Of a stretch of DNA of 64,000 bases, positions 7,137 through 51,549 are shown one piece after another (within the stretch, counting starts at the first letter, position 1; each line of letters starts with the position of its first letter). The stretch lies in NCBI RefSeq assembly GCF_046105845.1, contig NZ_CP151004.1; one strand, 5' to 3'. The notes under the pieces are model-generated. The model was not told where the DNA came from. It saw only the letters and a program-made list of their open reading frames with translations, and ran no database searches. Source of the DNA: Escherichia coli. GTDB lineage: Bacteria > Pseudomonadota > Gammaproteobacteria > Enterobacterales > Enterobacteriaceae. The position numbers and the translations under genes were made by a program.

Positions 7137-7507
7137 CTATACTTCCTCCGTGTTTTCGATGAGATGTAAGGTAACCAATTTTTGCCGATTCGGCTAATGC
7201 GTTTCCATTATCAAATCGATAAGTTTTACCTTACAACCTTCGTAAGACAACTTTGTGAACTTTGCACCGCCAGCGGCGATAAAAAGTAAAATGGCCCCCT
7301 TTCCAGGTGACCGTGTAATCTGAACTACCCTTTGGTATCTTCAGCGCCTGCCTGCAGGCTGAGGTGTTGCCCTTACAAATGCAACAACGACATGGATTAC
7401 AACACCCTCATAAACAAAGGGCAATCACCTGATCTAAGCTCTTACCTATGACAGTGATAGGTTATGCCTTTTACTCGACTTTTGCACTGACTGAAAAGGA
7501 CAAATTA
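7137..7507. promoter_or_regulatory. Divergent ahpC / dsbG control region (OxyR-regulated promoters expected here)
   Basis: Intergenic region between the divergently oriented ahpC and dsbG; OxyR control of ahpCF and dsbG is established knowledge. The exact operator was not mapped from the sequence. Confidence 0.4.
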
Positions 7508-43144: not shown

Positions 43145-46100
43145 TTATTTCCGTACCCGATGTCGGTGCAGCCACATCAGCTTATACGCCGCCGGGATAA
43201 TAAACAGCGACAGCAAAGGCGCGGTGATCATGCCGCCAATCATCGGCGCGGCAATCCGGCTCATCACCTCTGATCCTGCCCCCGTTCCCCACAGAATCGG
43301 CAGCAGACCAGCGATAATCACCGCCACCGTCATCGCTTTCGGGCGCACGCGCAGGACAGCGCCGTGATACAACGCCTCATCCAGCTTCTGCTCGCTGAAT
43401 GTTTGCGGATTATTCAACGACGGCTCGGCCTCTATGGCGTGACGTAAATACATCAGCATCACCACGCCAAATTCGGCGGCGACTCCGGCGAGGGCAATAA
43501 AACCGGTGCCCGTCGCCACGGAAAGATGAAAGCCCATCCACCACAGCAACCAGATGCCGCCCACCAGCGCAAACGGTACGCTGCTGATAATCAGCAACGC
43601 TTCGCCCACCCGACGGAACGCCAGATACAACAGCACGAAGATGATCATCAACGTCATCGGCACCATGAGTTTCAGCTTATGGTTGGCGCGCTCCAGTAGC
43701 TCGAACTGCCCGGAGAATGCCACGCTGGTGCCCGGTTTTAACTGCACTTTTTCAGCTATCGCTTTTTGCAAATCGTGAACCACCGACACCATGTCACGAT
43801 CGCGGGCATCGATATAAATCCAGCTCGTCGGGCGCGCATTCTCGGTTTTCAGCATCGACGGTCCGGTAGAGACTTTAACGTCGGCCACGTCTGCCAGGGT
43901 GATTTGCTGCTTCATCGGCGTCAGGATCGGCAACTGGCGCAGCGCCTGCGGACTATCGCGCCAGCTTTGCGGATAACGCAGATTAATTGGATAACGGGCA
44001 ATCCCTTCCACCGTTTCGCCAACCATCGCCCCGCCCACCGCAGATGTCACAAACAACTGCACATCCGCCACCGTCATACCGTAACGCGCGGCTTTTTCAC
44101 GGTTAATCTCAACGTTGATATAGCGCCCACCTTCCAGACGTTCAGCAAGGGCAGAAGCCACGCCTGGCACCGTTCGTGCCACTTCTTCAATTTGCTCCGC
44201 CATCGCGTCGATATCCGCCAGCACAGTGCCGGAAACTTTAATGCCGATGGGGCTTTTAATGCCAGTCGAGAGCATATCGATACGGTTACGAATTGGCGGC
44301 ACCCACAGATTCGCCAGCCCCGGCAGCCGCACGGTGTTATCCAGTTCCTCGATGATTTTGTCCATCGTCATGCCTGGCCGCCACTGATCTTGTGGCTTAA
44401 GCTGGATGGTCGTTTCTACCATCTCCAGCGGAGCAGAATCGGTGGCGGTTTCCGCTTTCCCGGTTTTGCCAAATACCCGCGCCACTTCAGGTACGCTCAT
44501 AATCAGCTTGTCGGTTTTTTGCAGCATACTCGCCGCCTCTGCTGCGGAAATCCCCGGCAGCGTCGATGGCATATATAACAAGTCGCCTTCATTAATCTGC
44601 GGTAAAAATTCCCCGCCAACTTTATTGAGCGGCCAGAGAATCGTCAGCACCGAAAGCGCTGCCACCAGCAGCGTGGTTTTCGGCCAGTGCAGTACTTTCA
44701 GCAACAGCGGATGATAAACACGAATCAAGAAGCGATTGAGCGGGTTACTGCTTTCTGGCGGAATTTTGCCACGGATCCAGTAACCCATCAGGATAGGGAT
44801 CACTACGATCGCCAGCAGCGCCGCGCCCGCCATCGCATAGGTTTTGGTGAACGCCAACGGGCCAAACAGACGCCCTTCCTGCCCTTCCAGGGTGAAGATC
44901 GGGATAAACGACAGTGTGATAATCAGCAGACTGATAAACAGCGCCGGACCCACTTCAACAGACGCATCGGTAATCACCTGCCAGCGCGTTTTATTATCCA
45001 GCGTGGCGTCAGGATGCTGGTGCTGCCACTCTTCCAGCCGTTTATGCGCATTCTCGATCATGACGATAGCGGCATCGACCATCGCCCCGACGGCAATCGC
45101 AATACCGCCCAGCGACATAATATTGGCGTTCAGTCCCTGAAAGTGCATGACAATAAAAGCAATACACAACCCCAGCGGCAACGAAATAATCGCCACCAGC
45201 GCCGAGCGCACATGCCAGAGAAACAGCGCACAGACTACCGCCACCACAATAAACTCTTCCAGCAACTTGCCGCTGAGGTTGTCGATGGCGCGGTCAATGA
45301 GCTGGCTGCGATCGTATGTTGTAACTATCTCCACGCCTTCCGGCAGACTGCTTTTCAGCGTTTCCAGTTTGTCTTTCACGGCGGCGATCACTTCTCGGGC
45401 GTTTTTGCCGGAGCGCAGGATCACCACCCCGCCCGCCACTTCGCCTTCGCCGTTCAGTTCGGCAATGCCCCGGCGCATCTCCGGGCCAATCTGGACCTTC
45501 GCAACATCGCGCAGATAAACGGGCACGCCATTTTCACTGGCTTTTAAAACGATGTGATTAAAGTCGTCGAGCGTTTGCAGATAGCCGCTGGCGCGCACCA
45601 TATATTCCGCTTCCGCCAGTTCGATCGACGAACCGCCCGCTTCCTGGTTTGAAGCATCCAGCGCGCTTTTTACTTCGGCGAGACTGATACCATATTGCGC
45701 CAGGCGCTGGGGATCGATAACCACCTGATACTCTTTCACCACGCCGCCCACCGACGCCACTTCCGCAACGTCAGGGATGGTTTTTAGCTCATATTTGAGA
45801 AACCAATCCTGCAATGAGCGTAAATCGGCCAGATCGTGCTTACCGCTGCGATCCACCAGTGCATATTCATAGATCCAGCCAACACCCGTGGCATCTGGTC
45901 CCAGCTCGGCGCTGACTCCCGCAGGCAGCTTACCCTGTACCTGGTTGAGGTACTCCAGCACCCGCGAACGCGCCCAGTACGGATCGGTACCATCTTCGAA
46001 AATGACATACACATAAGAGTCGCCAAACTGCGAGAAACCGCGCACAGTCTTCGCGCCAGGCACCGACAACATGGTGGTGGTTAGCGGATAAGTCACCTGA

Positions 46101-46288
46101 TTTTCAACGATTTGCGGTGCCTGACCGGGATAGCTGGTTTTAATAATCACCTGCACATCGGAGAGATCCGGCAGCGCATCCACTGGCGTATTAATGATGG
46201 TCCAGGTGCCCCAGATACTCAGAAACAACGCGCCCATCAGCACCAGAAAACGGTTCGCCACCGAGCGACGAATAATCCATTCAATCAT
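43145..46288 (-). CDS. cusA: Cu(I)/Ag(I) efflux RND transporter CusA
   Basis: 1047 aa RND pump ORF; operon cusCFBA. Confidence 0.95.
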
Positions 46289-46299
46289 TGGTTATTCCC

Positions 46300-47523
46300 T
46301 CAATGCGCATGGGTAGCACTTTCAGAGCGCATCCGCTCCAGTGCGCCAGAAATATTGGCTTCGGAATCAATCAGGAACAGGCCGCTGGAAACCACCTTTT
46401 CACCTTCCGCCAGACCAGAGCGTAACGCGGTGACGCCTTGCGATGCCTGGAAAACGGCAACGCGTTTCGGTACAAAGCGTCCGTCGGCATCAACGGTAAT
46501 CACCCGCTGTTCACTGCCGGTATCAATCAGCGCCTGTGACGGAATGAGCAGCATCGGTTCGCTGGTGGTATTGAGTTGCAACCAGGCGTTCATGCCCGGT
46601 TTTAGCGACTCGTCGGCGTTGTCGACTTCCAGACGCAGCTGCAGCGTGCGGGTCGCGGCATCCACGCCGGGTAGCAGCGTCCATTTGCGAATGGTGAGTG
46701 TTTTATCAGGTCGCGCCGGAACGGTGAGCGTAAACTGCGAGGCATCTTTCACCAGCCAGGCGATGGACTCCGGGATCGCTGCAGTGACCCACACCGGGTC
46801 CATACCCTGAATTTTCGCGACCACATTATCTTTGGCGATATTCATTCCCGCGCGCAGATCAAACGCGGTGATCACGCCATCAATGGGCGCTTTGAGCGTA
46901 AAGCGAGTCTGTATTTTTTGCGTGGCGATCAGGCGGCGAATATCCGCCTCCGGCATTCCCGCCAGTCGCAGTCGCTCAAGAATGCCTTCAGTCTGGGTCG
47001 CCGTACCGCCGGTTTCGCGCAGCAGTAAATACTCACTCTGCGCTTCCACCCAGTCGGGAATGGTCAGGTCGAGAAGCGGTGTGCCCTTTTGTACTTTATC
47101 GCCCACCGTAAGCGGATACACCTTGTCGATAAATCCGGCAGCGCGAGCCTGCACAATGGCATACTGATACTCGTTGTAACTGACATTCGCCGGGAAACTC
47201 TGGGCAAAAGTCAGCGGCCCGCGCGTGACGGTAGCCGTTTTCACCCCCAGATTCTGCGTCTGGGTCGGGTCAATGCGTACACCAGACGCAGAACTCTCTT
47301 CATCGGCATATTTCGGCACCAGATCCATATCCATAAACGGCGATTTACCTGGTTTATCGAACCGCGTATTGGGATACATCGGGTCGTACCAGAATAAGAT
47401 TTTACGTTCTGCGGTCGGCGTTTTTTCTGCGGGCGGTTCAGCCTTTGCAAACCAGGTAAAACCTGCCGCAGAAATAATACCGCCCGCGATCATGCTGCCG
47501 ATAATAAGCGCGATTTTTTTCAT
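46300..47523 (-). CDS. cusB: Cu(I)/Ag(I) efflux membrane fusion protein CusB
   Basis: 407 aa ORF; synteny. Confidence 0.95.
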   Translation of the reverse strand: MKKIALIIGSMIAGGIISAAGFTWFAKAEPPAEKTPTAERKILFWYDPMYPNTRFDKPGKSPFMDMDLVPKYADEESSASGVRIDPTQTQNLGVKTATVTRGPLTFAQSFPANVSYNEYQYAIVQARAAGFIDKVYPLTVGDKVQKGTPLLDLTIPDWVEAQSEYLLLRETGGTATQTEGILERLRLAGMPEADIRRLIATQKIQTRFTLKAPIDGVITAFDLRAGMNIAKDNVVAKIQGMDPVWVTAAIPESIAWLVKDASQFTLTVPARPDKTLTIRKWTLLPGVDAATRTLQLRLEVDNADESLKPGMNAWLQLNTTSEPMLLIPSQALIDTGSEQRVITVDADGRFVPKRVAVFQASQGVTALRSGLAEGEKVVSSGLFLIDSEANISGALERMRSESATHAH

Positions 47524-47538
47524 CTCATTAAACCTGGG

Positions 47539-47871
47539 TTACTGGCTGACTTTAATATCCTGTAATAAAGAAAGGTTGCCCTGCTGGACAAAATTAAACG
47601 CCACTTTGTCGCCGGTTTTAATTTCACTCATTTTCGTCTGCGGGGTGATGGTAAAGCGCATGGTCATCTCCGGCCAGTTCACGGCTACAATCGGATCGTG
47701 ATGGATGGTGATTTTTTTGCTTTCCAGATCAACACCTTTTACCACCCCAGTGGCGCTAATGACCTGTGGTTTTGCTTCGCTCGTGGTTTCATGATGATGT
47801 TCGTTAGCCTGGGCATTAAAGCCAATAATGGTAAACAGACTGAACATTGCGACTTGCAGTGCTTTTTTCAT
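47539..47871 (-). CDS. cusF: Periplasmic copper chaperone CusF
   Basis: 110 aa ORF with signal peptide and His-rich N-terminus. Confidence 0.93.
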   Translation of the reverse strand: MKKALQVAMFSLFTIIGFNAQANEHHHETTSEAKPQVISATGVVKGVDLESKKITIHHDPIVAVNWPEMTMRFTITPQTKMSEIKTGDKVAFNFVQQGNLSLLQDIKVSQ

Positions 47872-47894
47872 TTATTCTCTCCTGGAGTTAAAAA

Positions 47895-49277
47895 TTATTG
47901 CTGCCAACCGCCACCAAGTGCGGCATATAAAGAAATTTCGTTAACCTGACGGGCATAATTCAGGTCAAGTAAGGTTTGTCGGGTTGCAAATAAAGAACGC
48001 TCGGCATCCAGCACTTCCAGATAACTTACCGCGCCGTGCTGATATAATGCCCGCGCCCGTTGCAAAGTAATTTGCAGCGACGCCAGATAACGCTGCTGGG
48101 CGCTGATTTGATCGTTCAGGCTTTGACGTAATGCCAGCGCATCTGCCACTTCTTTAAAGGCGTTCTGGATTTTCTGTTCATAATTCACTACCGACTGCTG
48201 CTGGCGAATTTCGGCGATATCCAGATTGGCCTGGTTGCGTCCGGCATTAAAAATGGGGATCTCAATTTTCGGAATAAAATTCCACATCCCGCTGCTGGCG
48301 TTAAATAATGACGACAGATCGCTGCTGGCGGTTGATATTCCGCTGGTCAGGCTTATAGATGGGAAAAATGCCGCGCGTGCGGCCCCAATATTGGCATTAG
48401 CCGCCATTAACGCGTGTTCAGCTTCCATAATATCCGGGCGCTGCAATAAGATTTGCGACGACAAGCCCGCCGGTAATTTAACGCTTTGCAGGCTGTCGCT
48501 GTTTACTGTCTGCGCTTGCGGCAGCTTGCCGTAGCTTCCCAATAACAGTTGCAATGCATTATTCGCCTGCGCCAGTTCCCCCTGACGTTTAGCGATGTCA
48601 CTGCGGGTACTTTCTATCACCCCGCGAGCCTGTTCCAGCGCCAGAACATTGCTGCTACCGGTCAACAGTTGTTTTTCGACAAACGCATATGACTGCTGAT
48701 AATTACGCAGCGTTTCTTCGGCGATTTGCAATTGCGCATACGCCAGCTGCTGATTGAAATAGCTTTGCGCGACATTAGAAACCAGCAGAATATGCACCGC
48801 GCGCTGGGCTTCCTCCGTGGCTAAATAATTTTGGCGCTCGGCTTCGCTCATGTTCTTTAAGCGACCGAAAAAATCGAGATCAAAGCTGGCGTTAAGGCCA
48901 GTCGAGAACTCCCGCGTCGTGGCTGAATCGCCTTTAAGATTGCCGCTCCAGCTGCCGCTGCCCTCGCCATTGAGCTGTGGGTAGCGGTCGGTATCGGTCA
49001 GACGATATTGCGCCCGCGCTTCCTGCACTTTCAGCGTCGCCATGCGCAAATCCCGGTTATTCACCAGCGCCTCGCTAATCAGCGTCTTCACCTGATTATC
49101 AACAAAAAAGGTGCGCCAGCCCGCGTTCTGGTAGTTATCTGCTGCGTTAACCAGGCCGTTCTGGCTGAGTGAGAACTGCTGCGGCACGGGCATTGCCGGA
49201 CGCTGATAATCCGGTGCCAGTGAACAACCGGTTAGCGCAAGGGCCACACAAAATGGCAGAAGTTTACAAGGAGACAT
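47895..49277 (-). CDS. cusC: Cu(I)/Ag(I) efflux outer membrane factor CusC
   Basis: 460 aa ORF with lipoprotein signal (LTGCSLAP); synteny. Confidence 0.93.
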   Translation of the reverse strand: MSPCKLLPFCVALALTGCSLAPDYQRPAMPVPQQFSLSQNGLVNAADNYQNAGWRTFFVDNQVKTLISEALVNNRDLRMATLKVQEARAQYRLTDTDRYPQLNGEGSGSWSGNLKGDSATTREFSTGLNASFDLDFFGRLKNMSEAERQNYLATEEAQRAVHILLVSNVAQSYFNQQLAYAQLQIAEETLRNYQQSYAFVEKQLLTGSSNVLALEQARGVIESTRSDIAKRQGELAQANNALQLLLGSYGKLPQAQTVNSDSLQSVKLPAGLSSQILLQRPDIMEAEHALMAANANIGAARAAFFPSISLTSGISTASSDLSSLFNASSGMWNFIPKIEIPIFNAGRNQANLDIAEIRQQQSVVNYEQKIQNAFKEVADALALRQSLNDQISAQQRYLASLQITLQRARALYQHGAVSYLEVLDAERSLFATRQTLLDLNYARQVNEISLYAALGGGWQQ

Positions 49278-49336
49278 AGGCTCATAATTTCTGGTGATTT
49301 TATGCTGCCAACTTTACTCGCCAGGCTCTGATTTTC

Positions 49337-49358
49337 CGGTGACAGGAAAATGACAAAA
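49337..49358. promoter_or_regulatory. CusR box in the cusC / cusR divergent promoter region
   Basis: Palindrome aaaatgacaa-aa-ttgtcatttt between cusC and cusR, matching the known CusR operator. Confidence 0.85.
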
Positions 49359-49433
49359 TTGTCATTTTGCCAATAAGCGATTGCCATCTGATCCCGCTAC
49401 TCTAGAATTGCCCGGGCAACATGCGGAGGAAAT

Positions 49434-50117
49434 ATGAAACTGTTGATTGTCGAAGATGAAAAGAAAACCGGAGAATACTTGACCAAAGGGTTAACCGAAG
49501 CCGGTTTTGTGGTCGATTTGGCCGACAATGGGCTGAATGGCTACCATCTGGCGATGACCGGTGATTATGACCTGATAATTCTCGATATTATGCTGCCGGA
49601 CGTGAACGGCTGGGATATCGTGCGCATGTTGCGTTCCGCCAATAAAGGGATGCCGATTCTGTTGCTTACCGCGCTTGGTACCATTGAACATCGCGTCAAG
49701 GGGCTGGAGTTGGGGGCGGATGACTACCTGGTGAAGCCGTTCGCTTTTGCTGAACTGCTGGCGCGGGTGCGCACCCTACTACGGCGCGGAGCGGCGGTGA
49801 TTATCGAAAGTCAGTTTCAGGTTGCCGATCTGATGGTCGATCTCGTCAGCCGCAAAGTCACCCGTAGCGGCACGCGCATCACGTTGACCAGTAAAGAATT
49901 TACTTTGCTGGAGTTTTTCCTCCGCCATCAGGGTGAAGTGCTGCCCCGCTCGCTTATCGCCTCGCAGGTGTGGGACATGAATTTCGACAGCGACACTAAC
50001 GCTATTGATGTGGCGGTGAAGCGGCTGCGCGGCAAAATCGACAATGATTTTGAACCAAAGTTGATTCAGACCGTGCGCGGCGTGGGTTACATGCTTGAGG
50101 TGCCGGATGGTCAGTAA
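49434..50117 (+). CDS. cusR: Copper-responsive response regulator CusR (OmpR family)
   Basis: 227 aa ORF recognised as CusR. Confidence 0.95.
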
Positions 50118-51549
50118 GCCATTTCAGCGCCCGTTTTCGCTGGCAACCCGCCTGACCTTTTTTATCAGCCTGGCCACCATCGCGGCGTTTTTCGCCTTTG
50201 CCTGGATCATGATCCACTCAGTAAAAGTGCATTTTGCCGAGCAGGATATTAATGATTTAAAAGAGATTAGCGCCACTCTTGAACGGGTACTTAATCACCC
50301 TGACGAAACGCAAGCCCAACGCTTAATGACGCTGGAAGATATCGTCAGTGGTTATTCCAATGTGTTGATTTCCCTGGCAGATAGCCACGGTAAAACGGTG
50401 TATCACTCCCCCGGTGCGCCGGATATCCGCGAGTTTACGCGTGACGCCATACCCGATAAAGACACGCGGGGCGGTGAGGTGTATCTCCTTTCCGGCCCGA
50501 CGATTATGATGCCGGGCCACGGTCACGGGCATATGGAACACAGCAACTGGCGGATGATTAGCTTGCCGGTTGGCCCACTAGTGGACGGCAAACCGATTTA
50601 TACGCTCTACATTGCGCTTTCGATCGATTTTCATCTTCATTACATAAATGATTTGATGAATAAACTTGTAATGACCGCATCGATCATTAGCATCCTGATC
50701 GTCTTTATCGTGCTGTTGGCGGTACATAAAGGTCACGCGCCGATCCGCAGCGTCAGCCGTCAAATCCAGAATATCACCTCGAAAGATCTCGACGTTCGCC
50801 TTGACCCGCAGACCGTGCCGATTGAGCTGGAACAGTTGGTACTGTCGTTCAACCATATGATCGAGCGTATTGAGGATGTCTTTACCCGCCAGTCCAATTT
50901 CTCAGCGGATATCGCCCACGAAATTCGTACACCAATTACGAATCTCATCACGCAAACGGAAATCGCCCTCAGCCAGTCGCGCAGCCAGAAGGAGCTGGAA
51001 GATGTGCTCTACTCTAATCTCGAAGAGCTGACGCGAATGGCGAAAATGGTCAGCGATATGCTGTTTCTCGCCCAAGCCGATAACAACCAGTTAATCCCCG
51101 AAAAGAAAATGCTCAACCTGGCGGATGAAGTCGGCAAAGTGTTCGATTTTTTCGAGGCATTAGCGGAAGATCGCGGCGTGGAGTTGCGGTTTGTTGGTGA
51201 CGAATGTCAGGTTGCGGGCGATCCGCTGATGCTGCGTCGGGCGTTAAGCAACCTGCTTTCTAATGCCCTGCGTTATACGCCAACCGGAGAGGCAATTGTA
51301 GTGCGCTGTCAAATGGTCGATCACCAGGTGCAAGTTACCGTCGAAAACCCCGGTACGCCCATTGCGCCCGAACACTTACCGCGATTGTTTGACCGTTTCT
51401 ACCGCGTTGACCCCTCCCGCCAGCGAAAAGGTGAAGGTAGCGGCATTGGGCTGGCGATAGTGAAATCAATTGTTGTCGCGCATAAAGGCACGGTTGCGGT
51501 AACGTCGGATGCGCAGGGGACAAGGTTTGTTATCATATTACCCGCTTAA
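50107..51549 (+). CDS. cusS: Copper-sensing histidine kinase CusS
   Basis: ORF 50095..51549 trimmed to [16 protein letters not shown] (480 aa); overlaps the cusR stop by 11 nt. Confidence 0.93.

Follow-up and report, generated by a model that had tools for sequence, protein, structure and literature searches.

The question raised by this locus is whether a palindrome in the short spacer between cusC and cusR, within a 64-kb stretch of Escherichia coli DNA (the window), is the operator of the copper and silver response regulator CusR, and whether CusR is its only reader. An earlier note had described a perfect palindrome at 49337-49358. Sequence reading and a repeat finder both identified a 22-bp perfect inverted repeat, AAAATGACAA-AA-TTGTCATTTT (AAAATGACAAAATTGTCATTTT), with 10-nt arms and a 2-nt spacer as described; the coordinates, however, were 10 nt too low, and the palindrome occupies 49347-49368. 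It is 69 nt from the ATG of cusC (at 49277) and 65 nt from that of cusR (at 49434). The pattern AAAATGACAANNTTGTCATTTT matched this position with 0 mismatches, and no other match was present in the 64 kb even when up to three mismatches were allowed. In an exhaustive scan of the window, the box was also the sole perfect inverted repeat with arms of at least 10 nt and a spacer of at most 4 nt. Two further candidate CusR sites, at 7245 and 18232, were proposed by a relaxed core (TGACAANNTTGTCA, up to two mismatches) and rejected as chance-level matches (3 found versus 2.5 expected).

The motif is A+T-rich and exact matches to it occur in unrelated A+T-rich genomes, as might be expected if the palindrome had arisen by chance and had no function. 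However, AAAATGACAANNTTGTCATTTT was matched in none of 100 dinucleotide-preserving shuffles with up to three mismatches allowed, and shuffled windows contained a mean of only 0.28 perfect inverted repeats of the arm and spacer lengths given above. In addition, more than 5100 E. coli genomes carry the box unchanged, and distant genera have it in the same genomic position. This conservation refutes a chance origin, to which we assign a negligible probability.

A 2023 paper citing Yamamoto & Ishihama 2005 quotes the E. coli CusR box as the palindrome AAAATGACAAnnTTGTCATTTT between cusRS and cusC(F)BA. The window palindrome agreed with all 20 specified bases of this box and was identical to MG1655 at 22 of 22 positions, which bears out the match to the known CusR box that had been claimed. 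The earlier note had named a difference in sequence from the published site as the observation that would overturn its claim; in the comparison with the published box no difference was found. Across the entire spacer, the only two differences between the window and MG1655 were at 49346 and 49306, neither of them within the palindrome. Published work on K-12 points to the same spacer. A single CusR peak was reported by ChIP-chip, in the cusR/cusC spacer, consistent with a unique box, and in genomic SELEX unphosphorylated CusR bound this spacer only. Reporter and mutational footprinting work showed copper-dependent activity of the cusC promoter via CusR.

The flanking genes were named from a RefSeq genome with a 100% identical spacer, in which cusC lies to the left on the minus strand and cusR to the right on the plus strand. 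In that genome one strand encodes pheP, cusA, cusB, cusF and cusC and the opposite strand encodes cusR, cusS, nfrB and nfrA, an order shared with the cus locus of MG1655. The regulon had been described as intact, and at the sequence level this holds: all six cus genes are full-length, contain no internal stops and encode proteins 96.9-100% identical to those of MG1655 (Table 1).

Table 1. Genes and regulatory features of the cus locus in the window
Feature	Position	Strand	Description
cusA	43145-46288	-	1047 aa; 1043/1047 identical to MG1655
cusB	46300-47523	-	407 aa; 403/407 identical to MG1655
cusF	47539-47871	-	110 aa; 105/110 identical to MG1655
cusC	47895-49277	-	460 aa, first gene of cusCFBA; 453/460 identical to MG1655; last 3 aa absent in K-12
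cusC-cusR spacer	49278-49433		156 bp
Predicted cusC -10 hexamer	49311-49316	-	TAAAGT; predicted start near 49304; -35 position a poor match (CCGGAA)
Pho-box-like direct repeat	49338-49355	-	TGTCATTTTCCTGTCACC; overlaps cusC-proximal arm of the box; 17/18 identical to the K-12 PhoB ChIP-seq site TGTCATTTTTCTGTCACC
Third half-site	49340-49344	-	TGTCA on minus strand, TGACA on plus strand; direct repeat of cusC-proximal arm core, 11-bp spacing; about -40 to -36 of the predicted cusC promoter
CusR box	49347-49368	.	Arms 49347-49356 and 49359-49368, 10 nt each, 100% complementary; 2-nt spacer
Putative cusR promoter	49381-49408	+	-35 TTGCCA, 16-nt spacer, -10 TAGAAT; 10/12 match to consensus
cusR	49434-50117	+	227 aa, OmpR/PhoB-family response regulator; 227/227 identical to MG1655; Pfam Response_reg and Trans_reg_C
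cusS	50107-51549	+	480 aa from ATG at 50107, sensor histidine kinase; 465/480 identical to MG1655

Several differences from other E. coli strains were observed at this locus. CusS is the most diverged of the cus proteins relative to K-12, with 15 substitutions in 480 aa, and CusR is identical. Eight of the 15 CusS substitutions fall within residues 71-193, which we take to be the periplasmic sensor region. The gap between cusC and cusF in MG1655 (locus L002, 4475-4631) carries an insert of about 134 bp; the window is without it and has a spacer of only 23 nt there (47872-47894). This insert, which contains the ERIC1R and ERIC2 primer sequences, is presumably an ERIC/IRU element. It alters the end of cusC in MG1655 (TGA, 457 aa); CusC of the window has 460 aa and ends in WQQ. 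A naturally inactivated cus operon was detected in E. coli O19:H7 730V1 (NZ_CP061764.1; locus L040, 1959-3609), in which cusC is broken by ISKpn26, IS903B is inserted in the spacer at about 49325 (window numbering), between the box and the predicted cusC -10 hexamer, and cusRS is intact.

The palindrome is identical to the K-12 site, it is located between cusC and cusR, its regulator is intact and identical, and it is nearly invariant within E. coli. On these grounds we assigned the 22-bp palindrome, with high confidence, as the chromosomal E. coli CusR box, the predicted operator for CusR control of both cusCFBA and cusRS. In the corresponding circuit, the Cu(I)/Ag(I) sensor kinase CusS would activate CusR by phosphorylation, and phosphorylated CusR at the box would switch on the divergent cusCFBA efflux operon and also autoregulate cusRS.

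The palindrome had been placed midway between the divergent cusCFBA and cusRS start sites. This is accurate for the start codons, the midpoint of which (49355.5) is 2 bp from the palindrome centre (49357.5); with respect to transcription starts, the geometry depends on predicted promoters. On the cusC side, four genera share a TAnnnT hexamer at a fixed offset of -36 to -31 from the edge of the box: Escherichia and Klebsiella (TAAAGT), Citrobacter (TAAGGT) and Providencia (TACACT, TACTAT, TACGAT or TACCAT). In sil the hexamer is 1 nt nearer to the box. The sequence between the box and this hexamer diverges among the four genera and sil, and the fixed offset amid diverged sequence suggests that the cusC -10 element lies at 49316-49311. 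The poor -35 match is as expected for an activator-dependent promoter. From this -10-like hexamer and its cross-genus spacing we infer that the box centre lies at about -53.5 from the cusC start. A literature search for the cusC transcription start site yielded no usable report. A consensus scan had proposed another cusC promoter, TTGGCA-16-AATTAT at 49311-49284, which was ranked below the TAAAGT hexamer, as transcription from it would begin at about the ATG; its TTGGCA element also depends on a strain-specific A at 49306, where K-12 and the other Escherichia loci have G.

On the cusR side, the box centre would be located at about -57.5 from the start predicted from the -10-like hexamer TAGAAT, which is conserved in Escherichia and Citrobacter and reads TAAAAT in K. 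pneumoniae. The putative cusR promoter is better than that of cusC, whose -35 element is weak. In Providencia (loci L006, L011, L013, L016, L027 and L034), the distance between the box and TAGAAT is about 14 nt shorter than in Escherichia, so that the box would overlap the cusR -35 region, suggesting a different promoter geometry for autoregulation in this genus.

An inverted repeat of this kind could also act as a hairpin, either an RNA terminator or attenuator or a DNA cruciform, rather than as a protein-binding site. A 42-nt stretch containing it folds as single-stranded DNA at -7.7 kcal/mol (z = -3.1 versus shuffles), and its right arm ends in TTTT. However, a terminator scan of 49200-49500 found no terminator-like site, and the element is upstream of both genes and of both predicted promoters, which implies that it would not be transcribed. 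The stem is weak and A+T-rich and, with a spacer of 2 nt, its innermost arm pair must unpair to give a 4-nt loop. Moreover, what is conserved is the TGACA/TGTCA cores together with an unpaired third half-site, discussed below, and not compensatory pairing. We consider a hairpin function highly improbable.

Conservation of the CusR box was assessed within E. coli and across species. The 156-bp spacer was detected at an identity of at least 95% in 5333 of 5426 complete E. coli genomes (in 5332 over at least 80% of its length). The box with its 8-nt right flank was exact in 5147 of the 5333 genomes carrying the spacer, with a median of one copy per complete genome. When the left part of the box was searched together with its adjacent flank, exact matches were obtained in 3419 genomes with G at 49346 and in 1864 with A, the K-12 allele. 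This position is in the spacer of the PhoB direct repeat considered below, and the window carries the commoner allele. Among plasmids, a search with the spacer returned only E. coli-like copies, sil and Klebsiella cus.

The exact pattern of 20 specified bases was then scanned in one genome per species for about 100,000 species, and 37 loci were identified. Seventeen of these, from 10 genera, adjoin homologues of CusR, CusS or CusCFBA or other copper genes. They include three Escherichia loci, Citrobacter koseri, seven Providencia loci, Psychromonas and Acinetobacter, as well as Shimwellia (upstream of DUF305-CusF-OEP-CusB-CusA), a Rhodocyclaceae MAG (divergent from cusR and ahead of DUF411), Enterovibrio (ahead of a multicopper oxidase), Salinisphaera (beside a CusB-like gene) and Psychrobacter (beside a small protein rich in Met and His). 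Box placement varied in two of these loci. In Shimwellia pseudoproteus (L007, 5520-5541), the box is downstream of cusR-cusS, not in a divergent spacer, and on the same strand as the DUF305-CusF-OEP-CusB-CusA genes. In Acinetobacter dispersus (L039, 1803-1824), it is located about 300 nt past cusS, between convergent gene ends and with no obvious target ORF.

Three of the 37 loci adjoin genes for LacI-family regulators, and all three have CG at the centre of the palindrome. The remaining loci were mostly A+T-rich MAGs; these matches and loci L010, L021 and L022 were examined, and no copper context was found. The central-CG form, AAAATGACAACGTTGTCATTTT (L004, 1529-1550; L008, 3299-3320; L026, 4221-4242), suggests that an unrelated regulator family has come to use the palindrome convergently. 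The occurrence of such matches beside LacI-family genes in a Comamonadaceae MAG, Xylophilus and Klebsiella spallanzanii raises the possibility that the window palindrome is itself the operator of a LacI/GalR-type repressor. However, its centre is AA rather than CG, its neighbours are cusC and cusR with no LacI-family gene adjacent, and the third TGAC half-site, present in all copper-context loci, is missing from those in LacI contexts. The published SELEX peaks in this spacer also belong to CusR and its paralogue HprR. Operation by a LacI/GalR-type repressor is thus extremely unlikely. The presence of the same 20 bases beside LacI-family genes and in A+T-rich genomes nevertheless implies that the palindrome is diagnostic of a CusR box only together with its context, which in the window is unambiguous.

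Comparison of the flanks revealed an additional element on the cusC side of the CusR box. This side reads GGTGACAGG followed immediately by AAAATGACAA, with TGACA cores 11 bp apart, and on the strand read toward cusC it forms the direct repeat TTGTCATTTTCCTGTCAC. The third half-site is thus one helical turn nearer to cusC, at about -40 to -36 of its predicted promoter, so that the bound response regulator probably reaches as far as the -35 region and there recruits RNA polymerase, in the manner of PhoB at pho boxes. All 17 copper-context loci (10 of 10 genera) had TGAC at this offset, on one side of the box only, and none of the 20 others did; the Fisher p value of 6e-11 for this association is inflated by relatedness, the count of genera being the conservative one. 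Flank positions neighbouring the third half-site were not conserved among the 37 loci. The half-site was also detected between silC and silR on plasmids (GGTGACAGGATAATGACAATGTTGTCATTTT) and at the cus locus of Klebsiella pneumoniae (GTGACGGGAAAATGACAAAGCTGTCATTTT) and, wherever gene orientation was clear, it was on the side of the structural genes, away from cusR. Its invariance beside copper genes of beta- and gammaproteobacteria and in the mobile sil system argues that it is a part of the CusR-class operator and not an addition for PhoB in enterics.

The published CusR box consists of the palindrome alone, and one group has described the binding modes of CusR as complex and biochemically uncharacterised. 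A PDB sequence search returned no CusR-DNA complex, the closest chains being other OmpR-family regulators and the PcoR DNA-binding domain. We tentatively propose, at a likelihood just short of even, that the operator of the CusR/SilR type may be tripartite, with the inverted pair joined by a third TGAC half-site 11 bp toward the structural-gene promoter (about -40 to -36), and that this half-site may be intrinsic, ancient and contacted by phosphorylated CusR itself. If true, this organization would explain how PhoB, a reader of direct TGTCA repeats, cross-activates cusC. Two observations are mildly new, namely that the third half-site is conserved across genera and that it keeps a fixed distance from the -10 element; they refine the operator model and partly overlap published PhoB work. 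The third half-site could also guide better position-weight models for CusR, CopR and SilR sites and the design of copper biosensor promoters.

PhoB binding to this spacer has been reported in two studies. K-12 PhoB ChIP-seq lists the cusR/cusC site TGTCATTTTTCTGTCACC (Fitzgerald et al. 2023, PMC10294691), which differs from the repeat in the window only at 49346, in the spacer of the repeat. In the same study, cusC expression fell four-fold in a phoB deletion (208 to 50), and cusC was counted as a new member of the pho regulon, its site being shared by a limited range of species (Fitzgerald et al. 2023, PMC10294691). An earlier ChIP-chip study had also found the spacer for PhoB, had obtained EMSA shifts and reporter effects with the region upstream of cusR and cusC, and had placed the motif on the palindrome itself (AAATGACAAAATTGTCAT). 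On the minus strand of the window (49355-49338), two direct TGTCA cores stand 11 bp apart with an A/T-rich spacer, the arrangement that characterizes a pho box.

On one reading of these data, the element would first of all serve PhoB and link cusCFBA to phosphate starvation, CusR binding being secondary. However, the PhoB ChIP-seq signal at cusR/cusC was low (3, compared with 14-20 for phoE and phoA; PMC10294691), and a direct-repeat pho box does not need a perfect palindrome with 10-nt arms. In ten genera and on the mobile sil plasmid, the element is also accompanied by CusR, SilR and copper genes, and copper induction depends on CusRS. A primary role of PhoB therefore appears very unlikely, and its use of this site is best seen as an overlay on, not an alternative to, control by CusR. 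A second regulator was reported by genomic SELEX: the main and strongest peak of HprR is also in the cusR/cusC spacer, where it recognizes the same sequence as CusR with different affinity. By extension from these K-12 studies, the site in the window would not be exclusive to CusR, as HprR and PhoB are both reported to bind the same spacer. One short spacer is thus a documented meeting point for CusR (copper and silver), HprR (oxidative and chlorine stress) and PhoB (phosphate starvation), all members of the OmpR/PhoB family.

Comparison with known systems places the window element closest to the chromosomal CusR box of K-12. Among the more distant relatives, the palindromes of Pseudomonas CusR and CopR (ATTCATnnATGTAAT; CTGACAn5GTAAT for CopR) are also located in divergent spacers adjoining the regulator gene; these regulators have very small regulons, and the paralogous response regulators cross-bind. 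Compared with the window, however, their half-sites have another sequence, and identity between the regulators is only about 70%. The silC-silR spacer of the SilR/SilS system on IncHI2 plasmids contains ATAATGACAATGTTGTCATTTT, with one mismatch, and a third half-site on the silC side (GGTGACAGG), and the copper box of pcoE is quoted as TGACAAnnTTGTCAT in the 2023 paper. Unlike the window box, sil and pcoE belong to plasmid-borne paralogous systems, in which the outer arm bases vary.

The HprR (YedW) box of hiuH/hprR, CATTACAAAATTGTAATG, has the same inverted-repeat architecture and AAAATT centre as the CusR box, whereas its core is TTACA/TGTAA instead of TGACA/TGTCA; it belongs to another locus, outside the window, and its signal is H2O2/HOCl. 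The pho box, exemplified by pstS (CTGTCATAAAACTGTCAT), resembles the minus strand of the window in its two TGTCA cores 11 bp apart and its T-rich spacer. In contrast to the pho box, the cus element has an extra inverted copy that creates the palindrome, its occupancy by PhoB is weak, and its inducer is copper or silver via CusRS. For the K-12 operator (cusCp/cusRp), the box, its location between cusC and cusR and the regulator are all identical in the window, and near the box only the flanking position 49346 differs (G in the window, A in K-12). The CusR site is already known, indeed textbook knowledge, and the cus locus is ordinary for E. coli; its confirmation indicates that the copper and silver efflux circuit (cusRS-cusCFBA) is wired as in K-12, as expected for this species.
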